Source: a virus. From it: DNA of 64,000 bases. Numbering within the stretch: the first letter of the stretch is position 1; the number at the start of each line of letters is the position of its first letter. Positions 739 through 52,644 of the stretch are shown here, one piece after another. The translations under genes were made by a program, and so were the position numbers. Where the stretch lies: the IMG/VR virus record IMGVR_UViG_3300028840_003717, one strand, 5' to 3'. A model generated the notes under the pieces. It saw only the letters and a list, made by a program, of their open reading frames with translations. It searched no databases and was not told where the DNA came from.

Positions 739-2285
739 CCACGATCCCCAGCCCTCCGGACTACACGGACAAGGACTTCGCCTCCATCCGTCAACGGATC
801 ATCACCCACCTGGTGGCCCTGTTCCCCAGGTGGACGGACTACAACAGGTCCAATTTCGGGACGGTCCTGATAGAGGCTTTCGCCTACGTGGGGGACATCC
901 TGGCCTACTACCAGGACGCCCAAGCCAGGGAGACCAGGTGGTCCACGGCCGTCCGTAGGGCCTCCATCATCTCCCTGGCCAGGCTCATCAACTACACCCT
1001 GGACGGGGCCGTGGCGGCCACGGTGGACATGGACGTCACCATCACCAGGCCGGTGAGCCCAGGCGGCCAGGTGACCATCCCGATCGGGACCTTCGTGAAA
1101 ACGGCGGAGCTGATCGATCCGGTCAGGTTCCAGGTGGTGACGGCGGACCTGGTGATCGCCCCCGGGGACACGGCCGGGATCATGACGGTGGAGAACAGTG
1201 AGACCCATGAGGATGTGTTTGAGGCCCGTGGGGAGAATGGGGAGGAATTCACCCTGTCACAGGTTCCGTTCCTTGATGACTCGGACGTCATGACCATTGA
1301 CGCCCTGGCCTGGACCAGGGTGGACAGTTTCCTGGACTCGGACCCCACCGATCGCCACTACGTGGTCCTGGTGGATGAGAACGATCGGGCCACGTTCCGG
1401 ACGGGGGACGGGATCAACGGAGCTGTCCCTCCGGCCGGGGGGACCGTCCTGGTCAGCTACAAGACGGGCGGAGGTGATGACGGCAACGTGGAGGCCGGGA
1501 CGATCACCAAGTTTGAGCCGGGGAGCTGGACGGACAGCCTGGGGAACCCTGTGGTGGTCACCGTGACCAACCCCTTGGCGGCCTCCGGAGGCTATGACCG
1601 GGAGACGGTGGCCAGGGCCAGGGAGCTGGCCCCCAGGTCCCTCCGTGTCCTCAACCGGTGTGTGGCCCGGAGGGACTTTGAGGACCTGGCCGTCCAGGTC
1701 CCTGGGGTGGCCAGGGCCTTGATGCTCACCAAGGGTGAGGATGTGGCCGTCCCGGACTTCAACTATGGTCTCCTGTTCGTGGTCCCCACCGGCGGCGGGA
1801 CCCCCACCGGGGTCCTCCTCACGGCCGTGGAGGACTACATCAACGATGGGTTCCCCACCATGTTGACGTTTGGGTGGGAGGCCAGGGTCCCGGTCTACAA
1901 CACGATCAACGTGGTGGCCACGGTCTACCTGGCCCAGGACGCGGAGGAGGACACGGTGGCCACGTCCGTCCGCCAGGCCCTGTCCGACTTCTTCGCCCCC
2001 CTCAACGCGGACGGGTCCACCAATGAGCTGGTGGACTTTGGCTACAACTACAAGGACAAGGACGGGGACCCGGACCCTATGGTGGCCCTGTCGGACATCA
2101 AGAACATCATCAACGACACCACCGGGGTCCGGAGGCTGGGGACTCCGGACGATGGTGAGGGGGTGACCCTCGACGGGGCGGAGGACAACGTGGACCTGAT
2201 CCTCCGGGAGTTTCCGGAGGCCGGGACCCTCACCCTCATCAACGGGGACACGGCCGGGACCTTTTACTCCGGCCCGATCGATTAG
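735..2285 (+). CDS. Baseplate J-like / gp6-like wedge protein
   Basis: DYTDKDFASIR..WTDYNRSNFGTVLIEAFAYVGDILAYYQD; FRTGDGINGAVP; GGYDRET..RCVARRDFEDLA. Confidence 0.9.
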   Translation: MTTIPSPPDYTDKDFASIRQRIITHLVALFPRWTDYNRSNFGTVLIEAFAYVGDILAYYQDAQARETRWSTAVRRASIISLARLINYTLDGAVAATVDMDVTITRPVSPGGQVTIPIGTFVKTAELIDPVRFQVVTADLVIAPGDTAGIMTVENSETHEDVFEARGENGEEFTLSQVPFLDDSDVMTIDALAWTRVDSFLDSDPTDRHYVVLVDENDRATFRTGDGINGAVPPAGGTVLVSYKTGGGDDGNVEAGTITKFEPGSWTDSLGNPVVVTVTNPLAASGGYDRETVARARELAPRSLRVLNRCVARRDFEDLAVQVPGVARALMLTKGEDVAVPDFNYGLLFVVPTGGGTPTGVLLTAVEDYINDGFPTMLTFGWEARVPVYNTINVVATVYLAQDAEEDTVATSVRQALSDFFAPLNADGSTNELVDFGYNYKDKDGDPDPMVALSDIKNIINDTTGVRRLGTPDDGEGVTLDGAEDNVDLILREFPEAGTLTLINGDTAGTFYSGPID

Positions 2286-2305
2286 AGGACCTGGAGGAGG
2301 ACACC

Positions 2306-3430
2306 ATGGCGATCGAAGTCTATCAAAGCCAATACGCTGGGGACGATTACAACAACTGGCCCCGTGAGGCTTTCGAGCTGGCCAGTTTTTTCTCAGGGTC
2401 CAGCCACTTCACCATCATTGACAGCTACACCACCCATTGGTGGGAAAACCGACCGTGGGATGGACCACTCCCCACCCCATACGCCAGCTATGTGGGCCAC
2501 CGATACAAGGGGGACCCGATCGCGGACACGGAGGCCAGGCCATCCGGATCTGGTGGCCCCTATCGGGTGTGGGAGGACACCACGGACATGGGGTCAGCCA
2601 ATGACTGGTTCGTGATCCAGTGTGAGACCACCATCCATGGGTCCTACGGCCTCCCCAAGTGGCAAGCCAAGATCCAATGGACCAACTCCACCGGGTTCGA
2701 TGATGTCTCCGGCCTGAACTATGGGACGGAGGGTTCCACCAGGAGGTTCAATGTCCGGTTCTCCCCTCACGGTGGGTGGAACCTGGCGGACACCAACCCG
2801 GACTTTGACCCGGCTGGCCAGTCCTACAGGTCCTCACAAAACCATATGTATACGTTCGGCCACGGCGGCTCCGGGAATGACACCAGGTGGATTCTGGTGG
2901 CGGATGACGGCCAGCTTTGGAAGATGAACAGGAGGAACCAATCCGCCTTTGATGCGATCTACTTTGAGGGCTACATGGGGGACATTGTCCCGGTAGCTCC
3001 GGCTGGTGACCAGCCTGTCCCCAGGGTGTTTCACTGGGGTGGGGCCGATGTGAATTATGTCTACACCAACGGCTACCTTCCGGAGGATTCATATGTCACC
3101 GGCCCGTCCGACACCTACGGGGGGCTGGCCTTTGAGGATGAGTCCGGCTTGTGGGTTGAGGAGGGCTTCAGGCTCCCGGACGGCCAGCGGATGGCCAGCT
3201 ACTTGACACAGCCCAACCGTCACGCGGCGGACCTCCTCTCACAGTATGAGATTGACGTCCTTCCCTACTACCTGATCGGTTCCACCAAGGGGATGATCGG
3301 GACGGTCCCCCTGGTGGGCCGGTCCTACATGCCGGGGTTCATGCTGATCGCCAACAAACAGATCCTTTGCACCAAGGCCGGCTATGGGGTCCTGGTGAAG
3401 TGGGACGGGTCCACGGACCTGAACTTCTGA
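2306..3430 (+). CDS. Hypothetical virion/tail protein (paralog 1)
   Basis: 374 aa, SD GGAGG upstream, Trp/Tyr/Gly-rich, inside the baseplate cluster; shares motifs with the next ORF. Confidence 0.6.
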   Translation: MAIEVYQSQYAGDDYNNWPREAFELASFFSGSSHFTIIDSYTTHWWENRPWDGPLPTPYASYVGHRYKGDPIADTEARPSGSGGPYRVWEDTTDMGSANDWFVIQCETTIHGSYGLPKWQAKIQWTNSTGFDDVSGLNYGTEGSTRRFNVRFSPHGGWNLADTNPDFDPAGQSYRSSQNHMYTFGHGGSGNDTRWILVADDGQLWKMNRRNQSAFDAIYFEGYMGDIVPVAPAGDQPVPRVFHWGGADVNYVYTNGYLPEDSYVTGPSDTYGGLAFEDESGLWVEEGFRLPDGQRMASYLTQPNRHAADLLSQYEIDVLPYYLIGSTKGMIGTVPLVGRSYMPGFMLIANKQILCTKAGYGVLVKWDGSTDLNF

Positions 3431-3443
3431 GGAGGAGTCCACC

Positions 3444-4538
3444 ATGTCCGGAACAATGCAATATCGAGTTAACAGGGTGTGGGACTCCACGATCCAGCCC
3501 AACGTGTCCCCGGCCAGGTTCCTGTGGGAATGGTTGAATTTCATCAACGACCACCCTGGACTCACCGTTGTGGAGTGTGGGACGGGGACCACCAGCCACG
3601 GGTCATCCATCCCGGTTGAGTGGTTGTCATGGGACGGTGTGGCTGATCCCTCCACCCTGTCTCCCACCCCGTTCCTCCCCAATTCGTGGGTGGTGTTCCG
3701 GGCTGTCAATGCGGACGCCCTCCTTGACGGTGGCGGAGGTATGCCGTGGGAGGCCAAGGTCCAGGGGACATGGGGAGGGACCAACTATGACGATCCGTCC
3801 GTTACGGACTACGGCCAAGACGGGAACGCGGACAGGGTGGTCCTCCGGTCCTCGCCTGCTGGCGGCTGGACCGGGGCTTCTGTGTTCGATTTCTCCCCAA
3901 ACACTGGTGAGGCCGTGAGCCAGGACATGGCCATCTACTCCGGAGCGGATAAGGACTTCTGGCTGGATCTGGTGGGTGATGATGACACCCTGTTCTGGAA
4001 AGGCGCGGCCGGGGACTGGCCCACCGATGACCCCAAGGCACGGAGCCGGGGTGGCTACCTGGGGATGTTCCAGCGGAGGTCCCCGGCCATCAAGTGGCCG
4101 TTTTGGATGACGGCCGGTCAGATCCTGGACGCTACAGCCGGAGGGTCTTATCCGGTCAACTCCAAGCGGACCACCAACGGCTATTATGTGTGGGCTCCCA
4201 ACTACTCCTGGAATTGGCCGTCCTTCAGCCTGGGGAGGGATGACACGGCCGTCCAGGGCCACCGGTGTGACACGTGGTCCTATGTGGTCATCAACGCTAT
4301 GAACCCTTGCATCTACACGGGGGAGGATGTTCTCCCGGCCATCCTCATCCGTGAGAACGCCACACCGGACTACTATGACGTCCTGGGGGAGCTGAGGTTC
4401 TTGGTCACCGTCAAGAACGCCTATGGACAGAACACGGTCCTGGGGAGCAACGGTGACCTGATCCAGATCTGTGTGGACCATGCCAGCTATGGGGGGATCG
4501 CTATGCCGTGGCCCTCCGGTGTGATCCCGTCCTGGTAG
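3444..4538 (+). CDS. Hypothetical virion/tail protein (paralog 2)
   Basis: 364 aa, SD GGAGGAG; WEAKVQ..YDD..DYG..RSSPAGGW parallels WQAKIQ..FDD..NYG..RFSPHGGW in the previous ORF. Confidence 0.6.
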   Translation: MSGTMQYRVNRVWDSTIQPNVSPARFLWEWLNFINDHPGLTVVECGTGTTSHGSSIPVEWLSWDGVADPSTLSPTPFLPNSWVVFRAVNADALLDGGGGMPWEAKVQGTWGGTNYDDPSVTDYGQDGNADRVVLRSSPAGGWTGASVFDFSPNTGEAVSQDMAIYSGADKDFWLDLVGDDDTLFWKGAAGDWPTDDPKARSRGGYLGMFQRRSPAIKWPFWMTAGQILDATAGGSYPVNSKRTTNGYYVWAPNYSWNWPSFSLGRDDTAVQGHRCDTWSYVVINAMNPCIYTGEDVLPAILIRENATPDYYDVLGELRFLVTVKNAYGQNTVLGSNGDLIQICVDHASYGGIAMPWPSGVIPSW

Positions 4539-14764: not shown

Positions 14765-16762
14765 ATGGCAACCAAGACCAAGACAACCAAGGTGAATGAG
14801 ACCAAGGCCCTGGCCTCCCTGGCGGACCTCCGGAGCCAGCTCCCCCAGGCCGTGATGGAGCGGCGGGACGTGGCGGACGGCCTCCTCATCTCCCTCCTGT
14901 CCGGGACCCACATCCTTCTCCTGGGCCTCCCCGGGACGGCCAAGTCACTCATCATCCGGCTCACCTGCAAGGCCATCACGGGAGCGGAGTGGTTCTCCTG
15001 GCTGTTGACCAAGTTCTCCACCCCGGAGGAGATCTTTGGACCCTACGATCTCCAGGGTCTCAAAGTGGGGAGCTACAAGCGGATCGTGGACGGCAAGCTC
15101 CCCACGGCTCACGTGGCCTTCTTGGATGAGATTGACGGCGCTTCGGCGCGACAGGTCTCCTTCGCCCGGTAACGGACGATGAAACAAGGCGGCTATATGC
15201 TGGAACACCCGAGTATCCGAAGCTACCTGAGCCTTACCAGCTCCGCTGTGGTGACAATGCTTCGGTGCGGACAATCAGCCGGGAAGTCGTGGTTGACCCC
15301 TCAGAGACTACACGCCGCCCCCCTTGCGAAGCATTCGAGCATGGCAGTTGACACAGAGTCCGTGGCCCTGGTGGCGACGGTCTTTTGTCCCACACTCAAC
15401 GCAGCAATCGTAATCCCTGGACCAGTATCCGTTGGCTCGTGTCTTCTTCGAGGCCATCAACTGACCTCGGTGTTGGTTGATGTGACAAGACCGACAGGAC
15501 GGGACGAGTCTTTCAGGATCGTGTCCAGGCTGGAGTCCCATCGCCTCGTTTGTGCGTCCGTCTCCATCAAGGTGGTGGACGATCTCAGCCTTGGCTCCAC
15601 AGAAATGACAGCGACCATCTGTTGTGGACAGGATGTCCTCACGGTCGGTTCCAAAGTGACGGGTTTCTCGTCTTTCCTTGGTTGTATCCTTGAAGGACGG
15701 ATCATCCTTCATGTTGTCGTATCGAGCCTTGGCTTTGGACTTGAGCTTGTCAGCGTTTTTTCTGTAGTAATCACGATTGTAGCTGCGTTGATCGAAAGCC
15801 ATGATACCTCCGTTGCATCATTGAATAACGCTACCACGAACGCAACGGTCTGCAAGGGTGAAGATATAGTCCAGTCCCCATGGCGACATGGGGTGGCCTA
15901 CTGCTTCAAGGCCAACTCCGCCATCCTCAACGCCCTCCTGACCATCCTGGAGGAGCGGCTGTTCCACGATGGGACGGCGGCCCACCGGACCCCCCTCCTG
16001 ACCCTGGTGGGGGCCTCCAATGAGCTACCGGAGGATGAGTCCCTGGCGGCCCTCCATGACCGTTTCCTCCTCCGGTTCTGGACGGACTACCTCCAGGACG
16101 ATGACAACTTCGTGGACCTCCTGGACCCGGCCTTTGACCCCACAACCAAGGTCACGGCCACCATCTCCCTGGAGGAGCTGGCCCACCTCCAGGCCAAGGT
16201 CCGGACCGTCACCGTCAGCCGGGAGATCCGTGAGACCATGCTGGCCATCCGCCGGGACCTGGCGGCGGACGGTGTGGTGGCGTCCGATCGCCGGTGGAAG
16301 GCCGCGATCCGGGGCCTCCAGGCCAAGGCCCTCCTGGAGGGACGTGACCACGTGGTGACCAGTGACCTCCTCCTCCTCATCAACATCCTGTGGGAGACCA
16401 GGGATGAGCTGGCCAAGGTCCGGGACGTGGTGGGCCAGGCGGCGGACCCGATCCTGGCGGACGCCCTGGAGCTGGCCGATGACGCCAAGGCCACCCTGAA
16501 GGACATCCGGGACCAGGCCCCCCAGGACGCCAGCTCCCTGGACGATCGGCTGGCCTTTGTCAAGGTCATCATGGAGGGCTCCGGCTCCCTGAAGGCCACC
16601 ACGGACGCGATCTACTCCCGCCTGGGCCGGAGTGGCATGACCCTGGACACGGCCACCCCGGAGGTCCAGGAGGCCATGGGCTCCGCCCTCCGGACACAGG
16701 AGGAGCTGGAGCGGATGGCCATGGCCTACTCCATGGGCCAGGTCAACGGGGTGGCCCGATGA
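14765..16762 (+). CDS. MoxR/RavA-family AAA+ ATPase split by a group I intron (exon 1 14765-15132, exon 2 15904-16762; 408 aa spliced)
   Basis: Walker A LLGLPGTAKS; the exon join AT|C restores AFLDEI-FKANSAILNALLTILEER, followed by GASNELPE and ALHDRFLLR, all RavA-like. Confidence 0.9.
15133..15903 (+). ncRNA. Group I self-splicing intron (771 nt)
   Basis: 5' exon ends in U and pairs with IGS GUCUC (15155-59) via U.G; P ATATGCTGGAA 15195; Q AATCAGCCGG 15273; R TCAGAGACTACA 15301; S AAGATATAGTCC 15861; P8 CCCTTGC/GCAAGGG; P9 CCCCATG-GCGA-CATGGGG; terminal G 15903. Confidence 0.92.
15308..15802 (-). CDS. Intron-encoded HNH homing endonuclease, antisense to the intron
   Basis: CHFC..VHHLDGD..SCRSCHINQH HNH/zinc core plus C-terminal CVEC..HGLCVNC finger; own SD GGAGGT; lower GC than flanks. 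Confidence 0.85.
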   Translation of the reverse strand: MAFDQRSYNRDYYRKNADKLKSKAKARYDNMKDDPSFKDTTKERRETRHFGTDREDILSTTDGRCHFCGAKAEIVHHLDGDGRTNEAMGLQPGHDPERLVPSCRSCHINQHRGQLMASKKTRANGYWSRDYDCCVECGTKDRRHQGHGLCVNCHARMLRKGGGV

Positions 16763-18321
16763 CCCCCAGGGACGCCAGGGCGGAGCGGGAGACCCGGAGC
16801 CAGGTCCTCCACGGTGAAGACCTGTGCTACCGGACCTCCAGGCTCCAACGTCGCCACTACCAGGCCGTCCGGACCACGGCGGACGGTGTCCGCCAGGCGG
16901 AGGCCCAGGGCCGGGACAAGCTGGGGACCTATCCCACGTTCCTCCGTGAGACGTTCGCGGACCTCTACTCCGGCGGACGGTTGTCCAAGGTGGAGCCCTC
17001 CACCGGTGACCCGGCGGCGGCCACCGTGTCCAAGCTCCACCAGCTCCGGAGCCAGGTCCCGGAGATGGAGCGGCTGGCGGCCCGTTGCCGGGGTGATAAT
17101 TTCAACGCCACCCTGGCCACCACGGCCGTGGCCCAGGGCCTTGTGGACCAGGTCCCGGAACACACCAAGGACGTCCAGAAGGCCCGTCAGTCCCTCCAGG
17201 CCCTCCAGGCCCTCCAGGCGGACGGACAGGACCTCCCCCAGGACCTCATGGACCAGGCCCAGGCGGAGGTCCAGGCGGCGGAGATGGAGGCCACGATGGC
17301 GGCGGAGGGCCTGGACGAAGGCTCCATCCGGGTGGCCCTCCGCCAAGCCGTGGACCAGGCGGCCGATCAGATTGAGGCCATGGATACGGCCCTCCAGGTG
17401 ATGGGATGGGGGACCGGGGCCGGGACCCCCTCCGATGGTGAGGCGGCGGAGACCAAGGCCCAGGTGGCCAAGGCCCTCCAGGACGCCCCCAAGCTCCGTG
17501 ACCTGTTTGAGCTGGCCGGCCGGATGAGGCTGATCGCCAGGCGAGTCCAGGCGGAGAAGGTCCGTCACGGAGCCGGTGAGCTGGCCAACGTGGAGACCGG
17601 GGCGGACGTGGCCAGGATGCTCCCGTCCGAGGCCATGATGATGGTGGACTCGGACCTGGAGGCCCTGTGGCTGAAGTCCTACGCGGAACGCGGCCTCCTC
17701 CAATACCAGCTCCAGGACAAGGACCCGGCCGGCAAGGGTCCCGTGGTGGTCCTGGTGGATGACTCCGGCTCCATGGGTGGCCGGCCGGAGTGTTGGGCCA
17801 AGGCCCTGGCCGTGGCCCTCATGGACCTGGCCCGGGACCAGGGCCGGAGCTTCGCCCTGGGGACGTTCTCCAGCTCCATGGGAGTCAAGATCGTGGAGAC
17901 GGACGCGGACCGGCTGGACATCCCGGCCACCCTCCGAGCCCTCACCCCGTTCATCGGCGGCGGGACCAACTGGTCCGCCCCCTTGGCCTGGGGGCTGGAG
18001 GTCATCGAAGGGGAGCGGGACCTCCGTGAGGCGGACGTCATCCTCATCACGGACGGCCTGGCCAGGCTGTCCCCCCAGGAGGCCCAGGTGGTCCGTGACA
18101 GGGCCAAGGCCCTGGACGCCAACATCCTGGGGATCGTGGTGGAGAACCCCAGGGGGGACTCCCCAGGCCAGGCCGGTGAGCCCTCCGGCCCGATCGCCAA
18201 CGCCCTGGGGGCCTTCTGTGACCAGGTCCACACCCTGGCCGGCCTGGTGTCCGAGGATGGCCAGGACACCAAGGGCCGTCCCCGTGACGGCCAGGTCCTC
18301 CACGCGGCCCTGTCCATCTAG
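16759..18321 (+). CDS. VWA-domain protein (ViaA/CoxE-like partner of the MoxR ATPase)
   Basis: MIDAS VLVDDSGSMG, GGGTNW and VILITDG; ATGA overlap with the ATPase stop. Confidence 0.9.
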   Translation: MTPRDARAERETRSQVLHGEDLCYRTSRLQRRHYQAVRTTADGVRQAEAQGRDKLGTYPTFLRETFADLYSGGRLSKVEPSTGDPAAATVSKLHQLRSQVPEMERLAARCRGDNFNATLATTAVAQGLVDQVPEHTKDVQKARQSLQALQALQADGQDLPQDLMDQAQAEVQAAEMEATMAAEGLDEGSIRVALRQAVDQAADQIEAMDTALQVMGWGTGAGTPSDGEAAETKAQVAKALQDAPKLRDLFELAGRMRLIARRVQAEKVRHGAGELANVETGADVARMLPSEAMMMVDSDLEALWLKSYAERGLLQYQLQDKDPAGKGPVVVLVDDSGSMGGRPECWAKALAVALMDLARDQGRSFALGTFSSSMGVKIVETDADRLDIPATLRALTPFIGGGTNWSAPLAWGLEVIEGERDLREADVILITDGLARLSPQEAQVVRDRAKALDANILGIVVENPRGDSPGQAGEPSGPIANALGAFCDQVHTLAGLVSEDGQDTKGRPRDGQVLHAALSI

Positions 18322-49722: not shown

Positions 49723-52644
49723 ATGGCCAAGCCCAAGACCACCAAGGCCAAGACGGCCAAGCCCAAGGCCCCACGGGTCCGGCCCAGGGCCGTGGATGAA
49801 CACGCGGAGGACTGGTATTCGGAGCGGCCGGAGTCCCCGGAGGCGGAGGCCATGAGGCGGCGGAGGGAGGTGGCCAAGGCCGTCAGGACCTCCCGTGTCC
49901 GCCAGGCCAGGGAGGACCCCAACGCCTTCGCGGAATATGCCTTTGAGGACTCCGTCACTGGAAACAAGCTCCGCCAGGCCAAGGTCCACCGTGACCTCCA
50001 GGAGGCCATCCGGGACAGGGACGTGGACCACCTCATGGTGGAGTTTCCGCGGAACCACGGCAAGTGTTGTGCGGCTGGAACGTTGATTCATCTTGAGGAT
50101 GGTAGCCTTGTCCCTGTCGAGGTTTTCGACAGTGGCCGGGTTCTCACAATGGACGACACGTTCAGGATCGTTAGTGGTGACGCCACGTGTCAGTCCAATG
50201 GGATCAAGGACTGCATTACCGTTTTGACGAAGACCGGTCGGGAGCTGGTGGTTTCACATGACCATCCGTTTCGGACTGGCAATGGATGGACAGCGGCGGA
50301 GGACCTGGACGCTGGTGTTCGTGTGGCTGTGATGAATGGATGCTCTGTCCCTGTCCAAGGAGACATGGACGAGCTGGACGCCTATGTCATTGGGGTCATG
50401 GTTGGAGACGGTGGGACGACGGATAGGGCTAGGGTGACGTGTTCTGATCAGGCTGTGTTGAACCAGGTGAGACAATGGTCCGATCGTCATGGATGGACGG
50501 TGTCTCATGTTGATGGTTACGACTATTCCATCACAGGTCACAAGGGAGCGAAGTCAGGAGGGCCAACCCACTATTTGAGAGACATGGGTCTTATGGGATG
50601 CAGATCTCATAACAAGACTATCCCGCATCAAGTATTAGTTGGTGGTGACCAAGCTAGGGCCGCGTTCCTTGCTGGATATTTCGACGCTGACGGGACGGTG
50701 AATAACAAGGATGGCGGTTCGGCTGAATTTTATTCCGTGAACAAGCCTTTGTTGGTGACTGTCCAGGACGTTCTGGCAAGGTTTGGGATTGTTTCAACCA
50801 TCTCTAGAAAGCGAGGGATGTATCGGAAGAAACACCACCTGTCATGGAGGCTGACTATCCGTGGCGATGGTTTGGACAGGTTCCGCAATATAGTAAGGCC
50901 AAGGGGGGACAAGGCTGACAGGATTGATTCTCTGGACTGTGGAGGAGGCGACGGCAATGGGGCCAAGCTGGATCTGTTTCCTGATGAGTTGTGGCGGCCC
51001 CATGTCAAAGCAACTGGTCTGTCCTTGCGTCAACAGGGTCTTCGGATTGACACAAAGAACAGGATCTCCAGACCAAAGCTCCGGAGGCTGGCGGAGCTGG
51101 ACGATAATGACAAGCTTCGTCAGGTGGCCAATGGTCAAGTCTTTTGGGATGAGGTTACGTCAGTTGAGCCTGTTGGCCCACGTGAGACCTATGATCTGAC
51201 CGTCTCCGGAACACACAACTTCGTTTCTCATGGATTCGTGACTCACAACACCACACAGGTTGAGATCTCCATCCTGTGGCTGTTGGGCCAGGACCCTAAC
51301 CTCCGGTTCAAGATCGTGTGTGAGTCGGACAACAAGGCCCAGGAACGTGTCCAACACTTGGCCCAACACATCATGGGGAACAGCCGGATCAGGGACGTGT
51401 TCCCCCACCTCCGTCCGGCCAGGCGGGGGGACTGGACCAAGAAGAAGATCGTGGTGGACCGGCCCCGGCTCATGAGGGACGTCTCCATTGAAGCCTGTGG
51501 GATTCAGACGGCGGCCACCGGCGGACGGGCTGACTACCTGGTGGCGGATGACCCGGTGGGGAGGCGGAACGCCCTGGAGATCCCCAAGCTCCGGGAGACC
51601 GTCAAGAGGGCCTGGCATTCAGATTGGTTGAACCTGTTGGAGCCCACCGGCCGGACCATCTACGTCTACACCCCGTGGCACACAGCGGACCTGTCCCACA
51701 AGCTCAAACGGAACCCGGTCTATCGTGTGTTCTCCCGTCCGATCGGACCCAAGATGGAGCCGGTGTGGGAGGCCAAGTGGCCCGTGGAGAAGCTGGAGGC
51801 CAAGCTGGCGGAGGTGGGTCAACGGGAGTTTGATCGTGGCTACCGGCTGATCGCCTTGTCCGGGGAGTATGCCACCGTCCAGGACTCATGGGTCCAATAC
51901 TGGACGGAGGAGCCCAACCTGGCGGACCTGATCGTGTTCACGGCCTATGACCTGTCCACCGGTGAGGGGGAGGACTTCTTCTCATCGGTGACGGTGGGCC
52001 TGGACGGCCGTGACCTGGGCCAGGCCCAGCCCAGGATCTACGTCCTGGACGCTTGGCATGGACACTTGACGTTCATGGCCCAGGTGGGAGCTGTCCTCCA
52101 GGAGGCCAAGCTGTGGCTCCCCCAGGCCGTGGCCCTGGAGGCCGTTCAGTATCAAGCGGTCCTCCCCCAGGTCCTCCAGGCGGCCCGTGATGACAAGCGG
52201 ACGGAGCTGACGGCGGACATTGTCCCGGTCCGTCCCCGGCTGTCCAAGGCCCTCCGGCTGTCCGCTATCACTCCCCTCCTGGAGCTGGGCCGTGTCTCTT
52301 TCAACCCGGCCCTGGACCCTGGACGGGGGCTCAAAGGGGACCTGGTGGAGGAGCTGACCATGTTCCCCCTGGCGGCCCATGATGACCTGGTGGACGCCTT
52401 TGTCTACGCCACGGCCCTGGCCGTGGACTACTCTATCCGGGCCGGTGGGAGGGGAGTTTCCGTGTCCAGCTACGGGGCGGACCGGTCCCGTGGTCAGGCT
52501 CCGGAGGCTCCAGTCCAGGCCCCGGATGGGGCCATTCTGACCTCCACCGGCCAGGCCAATGACGTCCCCGATGAGGCCGTGAGGGAGGCCGTGGAGGGGG
52601 GTTCAGTCCCTCCGATCTACTCCTGGGCCAACCTTGGGGATTGA
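49723..52644 (+). CDS. terL: Terminase large subunit with intein
   Basis: FPRNHGK|TT Walker A, GGRADYLVADDP Walker B, YTPWH, nuclease AYDLS..LEAVQYQ..FP.AAHDDLVDAF. Confidence 0.93.
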   Translation: MAKPKTTKAKTAKPKAPRVRPRAVDEHAEDWYSERPESPEAEAMRRRREVAKAVRTSRVRQAREDPNAFAEYAFEDSVTGNKLRQAKVHRDLQEAIRDRDVDHLMVEFPRNHGKCCAAGTLIHLEDGSLVPVEVFDSGRVLTMDDTFRIVSGDATCQSNGIKDCITVLTKTGRELVVSHDHPFRTGNGWTAAEDLDAGVRVAVMNGCSVPVQGDMDELDAYVIGVMVGDGGTTDRARVTCSDQAVLNQVRQWSDRHGWTVSHVDGYDYSITGHKGAKSGGPTHYLRDMGLMGCRSHNKTIPHQVLVGGDQARAAFLAGYFDADGTVNNKDGGSAEFYSVNKPLLVTVQDVLARFGIVSTISRKRGMYRKKHHLSWRLTIRGDGLDRFRNIVRPRGDKADRIDSLDCGGGDGNGAKLDLFPDELWRPHVKATGLSLRQQGLRIDTKNRISRPKLRRLAELDDNDKLRQVANGQVFWDEVTSVEPVGPRETYDLTVSGTHNFVSHGFVTHNTTQVEISILWLLGQDPNLRFKIVCESDNKAQERVQHLAQHIMGNSRIRDVFPHLRPARRGDWTKKKIVVDRPRLMRDVSIEACGIQTAATGGRADYLVADDPVGRRNALEIPKLRETVKRAWHSDWLNLLEPTGRTIYVYTPWHTADLSHKLKRNPVYRVFSRPIGPKMEPVWEAKWPVEKLEAKLAEVGQREFDRGYRLIALSGEYATVQDSWVQYWTEEPNLADLIVFTAYDLSTGEGEDFFSSVTVGLDGRDLGQAQPRIYVLDAWHGHLTFMAQVGAVLQEAKLWLPQAVALEAVQYQAVLPQVLQAARDDKRTELTADIVPVRPRLSKALRLSAITPLLELGRVSFNPALDPGRGLKGDLVEELTMFPLAAHDDLVDAFVYATALAVDYSIRAGGRGVSVSSYGADRSRGQAPEAPVQAPDGAILTSTGQANDVPDEAVREAVEGGSVPPIYSWANLGD
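50065..51249 (+). mobile_element. LAGLIDADG intein (395 aa) in the TerL Walker A motif
   Basis: Starts at Cys (CCAAGT), SHDHPF block B, motifs IGVMVGDG and FLAGYFDADG, ends TYDLTV..HNFV..THN followed by Thr; lower GC than flanks. Confidence 0.95.

Follow-up and report, generated by a model that had tools for sequence, protein, structure and literature searches.

The stretch of DNA analysed here (the window) comprises 64,000 nucleotides (nt) of IMG/VR record IMGVR_UViG_3300028840_003717, and all coordinates given in the following are window positions. It is phage DNA, with genes for a baseplate wedge protein, an exonuclease, a primase-helicase, a large terminase and a portal protein. Between positions 14765 and 16762, the gene of a MoxR-type AAA+ ATPase is found in two parts, separated by an insert that, as judged from its sequence and predicted fold, is confirmed to be a group I intron; the intron itself holds, on the opposite strand, an intact gene for a putative homing endonuclease of the HNH type. 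The features of the locus are the following.

14765–15132, plus strand: exon 1 of the bpMoxR AAA+ ATPase gene, with Walker A (GLPGTAKS) and Walker B (FLDE), ending with the AT of an Ile codon
15133–15903, plus strand: group I intron of 771 nt, with a full-length match to the Rfam model RF00028, covariation and a dip in GC content
15308–15802, minus strand: intact gene for a putative HNH homing endonuclease of 164 amino acids (aa), antisense to the intron and mostly in the P8 loop
15807–15811, minus strand: ribosome-binding site GGAGG, 4 nt upstream of the nuclease ATG
15812–15858, minus strand: candidate promoter region of the nuclease gene, between the P8 3′ strand and the ribosome-binding site
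15904–16762, plus strand: exon 2 of the MoxR gene, whose initial C completes ATC (Ile), followed by FKANSAILN... and the AAA lid

The features that mark a MoxR protein are all present, namely a bpMoxR domain with Walker A and Walker B, an AAA lid and a VWA neighbour. The exon 1 frame runs to ...AFLDE and then into the insert, where it is closed after 13 codons by a TAA stop (15170–15172), and the MoxR-homologous frame picks up at 15905 with FKANSAILN. Excision of 15133–15903, the length of which is divisible by 3, joins AT and C into ATC and directly restores an uninterrupted open reading frame (ORF) of 408 aa, the insertion being in phase 2 of the codon right after the Walker B ‘DE’. A first-pass annotation, made from the letters of the window, had already proposed the break after FLDE-I, the resumption 771 nt further on, the ATC joint and the 408-aa product, and these hold to the nucleotide: the profile alignments and that of the homologue P0008, described below, meet at the joint. 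In particular, exon 1 matches the Pfam bpMoxR profile PF20030 over profile positions 3–105 (E 4e-26), as well as AAA_5, and exon 2 matches profile positions 107–204 (E 2e-23) and AAA_lid_8 (E 1e-16), while PHROG 19600 is matched at 49–156 by exon 1 and at 158–387 by exon 2. From the gaps in both profiles it follows that exactly one residue is absent at the joint, that of the split codon. The ligated exons are predicted to read GATGAGATCTTCAAG, that is ...GAU GAG AUC UUC AAG... in codons. At its other end, exon 2 adjoins a VWA_2/CoxE partner gene (16759–18321), the start of which overlaps the exon 2 stop as ATGA at 16759–16762; the MoxR–VWA gene order is also found in L004, L014 and L019, three of the related loci designated here by L and a number.

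The ORF track conceals this arrangement by calling two separate ORFs, as the first-pass annotation rightly observed, to which a spurious ORF of 527 aa has to be added: the plus frame is open over 15173–16762, the sole in-frame stop of the intron being the TAA in the GUAA tetraloop of P2. Since this long open frame is not shared by relatives, in which the exon 2 frame reaches just 8–27 codons into the intron, it looks like a by-product of high GC content opposite a coding strand, and read-through of the open plus frame was rejected on the same count. An intein was likewise rejected, the frame being stopped at 15170 and the insert being a ribozyme.

The intron differs from its surroundings also in composition, with 55% GC against 67% in the exons and in the window, and with a trough of 48–57% inside it against 67–70% in the flanks. 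Its anatomy is directly legible in the sequence, and each item named in the first-pass annotation (the P, Q, R and S elements, P1 with its U.G pair, P8, a GNRA-capped P9 and the terminal G) is correct. The ribozyme elements, all on the plus strand, are arranged as follows.

P1, 15128–15159, plus strand: exon GAGAU (15128–15132) and U15133 paired with the guide GGUCUC (15154–15159), with U15132.G15155 at the 5′ splice site
Extra hairpin in the P1 loop, 15138–15149, plus strand: GCGC-UUCG-GCGC
P2, 15162–15179, plus strand: hairpin with a GUAA tetraloop (15169–15172); compensatory change in 7 of 7 pairs among 17 sequences
P3, 15188–15193/15314–15319, plus strand: delimits the ribozyme 5′ core, 15188–15319
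P4, 15199–15203/15275–15279, plus strand
P5, 15208–15211/15268–15271, plus strand
P5a, 15217–15223/15259–15265, plus strand
P5b, 15224–15228/15249–15253, plus strand
P6, 15280–15289/15294–15301, plus strand: J6/7 comes next
P7, 15306–15310/15867–15871, plus strand: predicted guanosine-binding site
P8, 15321–15327/15852–15858, plus strand: loop of 524 nt, holding most of the minus-strand nuclease gene
Ribozyme 3′ end, 15860–15903, plus strand: J8/7 and the P7 3′ strand read GAAGAUAUAGUCC
P9, 15876–15882/15887–15893, plus strand: GCGA loop at 15883–15886
P9.0, 15873–15875/15900–15902, plus strand: compensatory change seen
Terminal G, G15903, plus strand: the next base is the exon C

A P5a/P5b extension is present, and between P3′ and P8 there is neither P7.1 nor P7.2.

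A search with the Rfam group I models, which the first-pass annotation had suggested as a check, succeeded in part. At the curated gathering score of RF00028 (50 bits) the default search returned nothing for the insert, whereas under an E-value threshold the whole model (1–253) was matched at 15118–15893 with 40.6 bits, E being 1.2e-8 for the 1.2-kb region and 6.5e-7 for the whole 64-kb window. The alignment requires a large insert in the P8 loop and further inserts in P1 and P5, which are the likely reason for the sub-threshold score, as other ORF-carrying copies also score 44–52 bits. Relatives of the intron were gathered through homologues of the minus-strand ORF and through a scan of public collections with a 29-nt core pattern, and those at the MoxR site score as follows with RF00028.

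L004–L007, with ORF: 68.9 bits
L021, ORF-less, 252 nt: 67.9 bits
L009/L010, with ORF: 53 bits
L019, with ORF: 52 bits
L011, L020 and L022, with ORF (L011 cut at the 5′ end): about 44.5–45 bits
L012, with ORF: 37.3 bits
L003, with ORF: 36.2 bits

Thus, the score of the window is typical of the ORF-carrying members of the family.

Covariation supports the fold. When RNAalifold was applied unaided to five introns, it recovered P1, P2, P3, P4, P5, P5a, P5b and P6, with compensatory change in 23 of 48 pairs, and also P9 and P9.0, with compensatory change in 5 of 11. A family model was built from the same five-intron alignment and 17 members were aligned to it, a fitting that favours the structure, with which unaided RNAalifold nevertheless agrees. 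Standard pairs fill 96.2% of the cells over the 17 members, against 74% after shuffling and 32–43% when the partners are slid by 1–3 columns; the covariation score is 0.529, against 0.151 for shuffled alignments (0/500 as high) and at most 0.084 for slid ones; and changes on both sides are seen in 30 of the 48 pairs, against a shuffle mean of 22.3 and 10–18 after sliding. With the family model the window, itself one of the five training sequences, scores 179.9 bits, which is within the range of its relatives.

Covariation in P1 is the strongest individual piece of evidence. Guide and exon pair at six of six positions in all 12 introns tested, with an invariant U.G wobble at the splice site, and exon position −2, which is A, G or U (for Ile, Val or Phe), is met in the guide by U, C or A, again in 12/12. 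Furthermore, P7 changes on both strands from GACUA/UAGUC to GACUU/AAGUC in L012 and L019, the pairs of P8 covary freely among relatives, and the middle pair of P9.0 occurs as CG, GC and AU. Wherever the 3′ end of a MoxR-site intron is complete (nine introns), its last base is G and the exon C comes next. By every structural criterion applied to its sequence, the intron appears splicing-competent. The group I reading of the first-pass annotation is therefore upheld by a full-length covariance-model match, relatives above the gathering score, covariation in the core and in the guide, the restored protein and an intron-less homologue.

That annotation, although right about the ribozyme, left out the minus-strand HNH gene in the P8 loop. 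This gene reaches beyond the loop, its last 17 coding codons and stop overlapping the P8 5′ strand, P3′ and P7. The TAG stop of the window, L003 and L009 is complementary to the CUA of P7 (15308–15310 in the window); in L004, L019 and L022 the ORF ends at a TGA in J6/7; and in L012, with its changed P7, it continues to a TGA in P6. Nine or more distinct sequences have the backwards arrangement at the MoxR site (the window, L003, L004, L008/L009, L012, L019, L020, L022 and L024), of which L019 is part of a 56-kb IMG/VR viral contig, and the contigs that carry such introns have 49–67% GC where measured.

The encoded protein matches the PHROG HNH families 589, 119 and 8048 (E 3e-5 to 6e-5) and displays the motif CxxC...HH.D...N...CxxCH...H, followed by a second CxxC...CxxC zinc ribbon. 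C65, C68, H76, H77, D79, C103, C106, H107 and H111 are invariant in ten homologues of 46–56% identity. Differences from the window amount to 0.61–0.72 at third and 0.30–0.43 at first and second codon positions, and the ratio of non-synonymous to synonymous substitution rates is about 0.17 where synonymous sites are unsaturated, a pattern of purifying selection on the backwards ORF that is visible directly in the alignments. The AlphaFold model has a pLDDT of 80, and with Foldseek its top matches in the PDB, all of them weak, are nearly all HNH nucleases (the GVE2 phage HNH protein 5h0m, McrA, Cap5, Cas5-HNH and Gme HNH). The HNH motif and its conservation, together with the patchy distribution of the group I element in which the gene lies, suggest that it encodes a homing endonuclease.

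As the neighbouring phage genes are all on the plus strand, the nuclease gene needs a promoter of its own, which is probably located inside the intron. Seven relatives have a Shine–Dalgarno sequence, from AAGG to AAGGAGG, in the same place as the window. In L019, TTGACA-16-TATCAT (11/12) stands 27 nt before the nuclease ATG, and other relatives show weaker or extended −10-like sites at the matching place; the promoter region of the window offers weak sigma-70-like matches only (TTGCGT-17-AATGAT, 7/12), and a separate scan with a promoter-finding tool gave none there, nor on the right strand in L012 and L003. In 50,697 phage records, tblastn with the nuclease found no match at E ≤1e-6. A free-standing relative of the nuclease, 56% identical and without an intron core, is encoded by L002 (20–565, plus strand), where it is the lone gene on its strand, with neighbours on the other; a gene of this type is a possible source of the intron-borne nuclease.

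The intron family is not confined to MoxR genes, nor to one type of ORF, as the following members illustrate.

L021: same MoxR site; no ORF, P8 being a short hairpin
L025, 1745–2612, minus strand: classical AAA (PF00004) gene, at the Walker B ‘DEI’ (profile position 65); ORF-less; 67.3 bits
L030, 4502–6720, plus strand: classical AAA (PF00004) gene, at the Walker B ‘DEI’; HNH gene in sense orientation
LW81 and P1048 (Lactococcus phages): nrdE; HNH gene of unrelated type, sense, in the same P8 loop
L028: other site; LAGLIDADG-like ORF, sense
L029: other site; ORF in sense orientation

The conservation of the insertion site, suggested in the first-pass annotation, is supported both by the position in the Walker B box and by the presence of the same family at the equivalent site of PF00004 genes. 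Among further observations on these loci, the AAA gene of L030 also has an intein (Hint and Hom_end) upstream of the intron, and the intron of L029 (1969–2237, minus strand; RF00028 38 bits, 127 bits with model R1) overlaps one end of a match to archaeal small-subunit ribosomal RNA (2178–3667). A further ORF-less intron of the family, in a different host context, was met in runs X1 and X2 (contig records 5 and 12, about 1.2 kb). It matches the window at 15265–15322 and 15856–15893, the 533-nt P8 loop region being replaced by 12 nt, and it is the source of the only joints seen in the four DNA metagenome runs that were matched to the window.

A search of a collection of 5.8 billion proteins provided the corresponding empty site. 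Among the matches listed, the best 120 of 3,463 MoxR homologues, the closest is P0008, a protein of 441 aa found on 14–23 contigs, and it is uninterrupted. Exon 1 is 78% identical to its residues 50–156 and exon 2 is 64% identical from residue 158 on, with one residue between the two aligned parts, so that the alignment with an intron-less homologue, another check named in the first-pass annotation, brackets the joint by residues 156 and 158. The P0008 locus is syntenic (unknown gene, MoxR, VWA, PD-(D/E)XK, AAA_24) and carries the empty site GATGAGATA followed at once by TTCAAGGCG. The MoxR gene of L014 has an intron-less site and, judged by protein length, nearly all of the best 120 of 3,463 homologues are uninterrupted. 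In the four DNA metagenome runs, neither an intron-less allele nor a spliced form was found. Between the window and its relatives, the host MoxR proteins are 29–41% identical when compared over similar lengths, the nucleases 46–59% and the intron cores 67–78%. Nuclease and core being better conserved than the host protein, and the nearest homologue being empty, the distribution is directly seen to be patchy, as expected of a mobile element. Copies of roughly 90% similarity occur in cave and marsh metagenomes, and the identical sequence was assembled from two samples (sediment and seawater metagenomes), the contig being about 86 kb long.

The reading preferred here, and held with good confidence, is that a mobile group I intron bearing a homing-endonuclease gene occupies the Walker B box of a phage MoxR gene. 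For splicing activity, promoter, nuclease target and homing we infer the following scheme. The MoxR gene would be transcribed with the intron, the RNA of which would fold as a P1–P9 ribozyme, its internal guide GGUCUC pairing with the exon end GAGAU. In two transesterifications, guided by P1 and by the G-binding site in P7, an external guanosine would attack after U15132 and the freed exon would then attack after G15903, and ligation of the exons would give the intact 408-aa ATPase, expected to work with the adjacent VWA protein. The nuclease would be expressed independently of the host mRNA, from its own ribosome-binding site and probable own promoter, and in a mixed infection it would cut or nick an intron-less MoxR gene near GAYGAGNTC/TTCAAGG, after which repair would copy intron and nuclease gene into the empty allele. 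The backwards orientation would decouple translation of the nuclease from the host mRNA and keep ribosomes off the ribozyme, at the cost that an internal promoter would be needed and that RNA complementary to the intron would be produced.

Several observations weigh against this reading. No RNA run was found to contain the DNA of the intron, the spliced junction of which is a predicted one; its own RF00028 score of 40.6 bits does not reach the gathering score (50); and P2 and P5 of the window contain one C.A mismatch each. As to the nuclease, the Pfam search gave no HNH match at E ≤0.1, HNH nucleases are matched only weakly by the structure model (E 0.025–0.2), the promoter scan gave no sigma-70-like site for its gene in the window, and a strong promoter-like site is found in one relative only (L019). 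The low score and the mismatches would suit a decayed intron, dead for splicing, in a MoxR gene that is a pseudogene or makes fragments only. Such decay is nevertheless improbable, as all core helices and the guide–exon pairing are intact, the family-model score, with the proviso on training made above, is within the relatives' range, both exons are intact and in phase, the overlapping ATGA start of the VWA gene implies translation through exon 2, and an identical sequence was assembled from two samples. Still less credence can be given to a gene in pieces without splicing, in which a free-standing HNH gene would have entered MoxR and the two halves would be translated apart and reassemble, as is reportedly the case in phage Aeh1, where nrdA is said to be split by mobE. 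Gene callers do annotate two MoxR fragments, here and in relatives, but the HNH gene is embedded in about 275 nt of ribozyme sequence that is conserved and covaries, L021 has at the same site an intron without any ORF, the exon 2 boundary lacks a convincing start codon or ribosome-binding site (the called GTG at 15893 falls in P9), and the split falls within a codon.

An intron that does splice may also carry an HNH protein that is not, or not only, a homing enzyme, acting instead in interference competition against related phages that co-infect the cell, or persisting as a passenger, domesticated or in decay, that plays no part in intron mobility. A role in competition between phages is known for nucleases encoded in introns, and both the free-standing HNH relative without an intron core (L002) and the persistence of an ORF-less intron at the same MoxR site (L021) are in keeping with this view, which is nonetheless regarded as unlikely. 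Indeed, the HNH ORF, with its catalytic residues, is preserved throughout the MoxR-site introns that carry it (at least nine), a patchy element with an empty closest MoxR homologue is the pattern expected from homing, and competition and homing can coexist. A more elaborate proposal, to which a small but real chance is given, extends the mobile-intron reading: the intron lineage may be specialised on the Walker B box of AAA+ proteins at large, its guide pairing with GA(C/U)GAGNU, and may jump between families that are unrelated, such as MoxR (PF20030) and classical AAA (PF00004, in L025 and L030); in the MoxR branch the nuclease would have become fixed backwards with its own promoter, the transcript of which, being complementary to the ribozyme, would couple nuclease expression to repressed splicing and MoxR production. 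If this were true, the antisense nuclease would be part of a regulatory circuit, beyond a mere passenger.

Several known systems share some of the features of the MoxR intron. The DNA-polymerase gene of phages SPO1 and SP82 reportedly contains, at a conserved catalytic motif, a group I intron that encodes the HNH nicking enzyme I-HmuI, in work attributed to Landthaler et al. of 2004. The likeness lies in a phage group I intron, an HNH homing endonuclease and an insertion at a conserved catalytic motif of an enzyme; however, the SPO1/SP82 ORF is in sense orientation, the host gene is another one, and there is no sequence similarity as judged from tblastn of the MoxR-intron HNH protein against the 50,697 phage records. 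Closer in sequence is the first nrdE intron of the Lactococcus phages LW81 (KY554777) and P1048 (MN552145), which belongs to the same family: 46 nt (window 15270–15315), spanning the P4 3′ strand, P6 and P7, are 97.8% identical, and J8/7 with the P7 3′ strand is also the same. It differs in its ribonucleotide reductase host, its sense HNH gene of unrelated type and its AT-rich genome (31–33% GC). The near-identical 46-nt core of LW81 is thus shared despite a difference of about 35 points in GC content. The nrdE gene of LW81 (L001) is annotated as three coding sequences and an HNH gene, and holds two unannotated group I introns, at 2405–3263 (RF00028 42.7 bits, partial) and 3605–3850 (87.9 bits).

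A backwards nuclease gene in a phage intron already has a precedent in the capsid gene of mycobacteriophage LittleE, the intron of which has a bottom-strand homing-endonuclease ORF ‘transcribed in the leftwards direction’ (Pope et al. 2013, PMC3706429). In that study splicing was shown by reverse-transcription PCR and N-terminal sequencing, the intron type was given as ‘unclear, most likely group I’ with no structural model, and the ORF was likened to a LAGLIDADG protein in the text and called HNH in the figure legend (PMC3706429). LittleE resembles the MoxR intron in the U that closes exon 1, the G that closes the intron and the backwards course of the endonuclease ORF, and a related ORF-less intron is found elsewhere in sister phages, as the MoxR family also has an ORF-less form; the host gene is a capsid gene, not that of an ATPase, and overlap of the ORF with the ribozyme core is not described there. 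Antisense endonuclease genes with their own promoter are also present in eukaryotic nuclear ribosomal DNA group I introns, namely that of Didymium iridis with I-DirII and the L2066 introns (PMC3073962, PMC9548176), which differ from the phage intron by their His-Cys box enzymes, RNA polymerase II promoter, spliceosomal introns and polyadenylation. Antisense ORFs go unmentioned in a review from 2014 on the group I introns of bacteria. The literature searched, coverage of which was incomplete, yielded no description of a group I intron in MoxR; within it, the view of MoxR as an unusual intron host, taken in the first-pass annotation, stands, and the MoxR host gene and the Walker B site appear to be a new intron location.

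The large terminase gene of the window (ORF 49723–52641, plus strand, 973 aa) holds an intein with a LAGLIDADG homing-endonuclease domain; the Pfam matches Intein_splicing, LAGLIDADG_3 and Hom_end fall within residues 161–509, and the terminase match spans residues 515–906. With the intron, the phage therefore bears two different self-splicing mobile elements.

For annotation, the outcome is that two ‘ATPase fragments’ and a spurious 527-aa ORF are replaced by a single MoxR gene of 408 aa, its intron and the nuclease gene; every related metagenome contig, like the nrdE records of the Lactococcus phages, is misannotated in the same way. To a specialist the element is no surprise, being a clean and instructive case of a canonical mobile intron. 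At least nine divergent copies are now available for comparison, together with one form that lacks an ORF, one that has its ORF in sense orientation and a nuclease relative that stands alone. With this set one can address the expression of a nuclease gene that lies antisense to its intron, and its coexistence with a ribozyme that shares part of the P7, P3 and P8 sequence with it. As the intron has stayed splicing-competent by structural criteria, the MoxR–VWA pair must be worth keeping functional in the phage, and the Walker B box of AAA+ ATPases, of both the MoxR type and the classical AAA type, joins the conserved catalytic sites colonised by mobile group I introns of phages.

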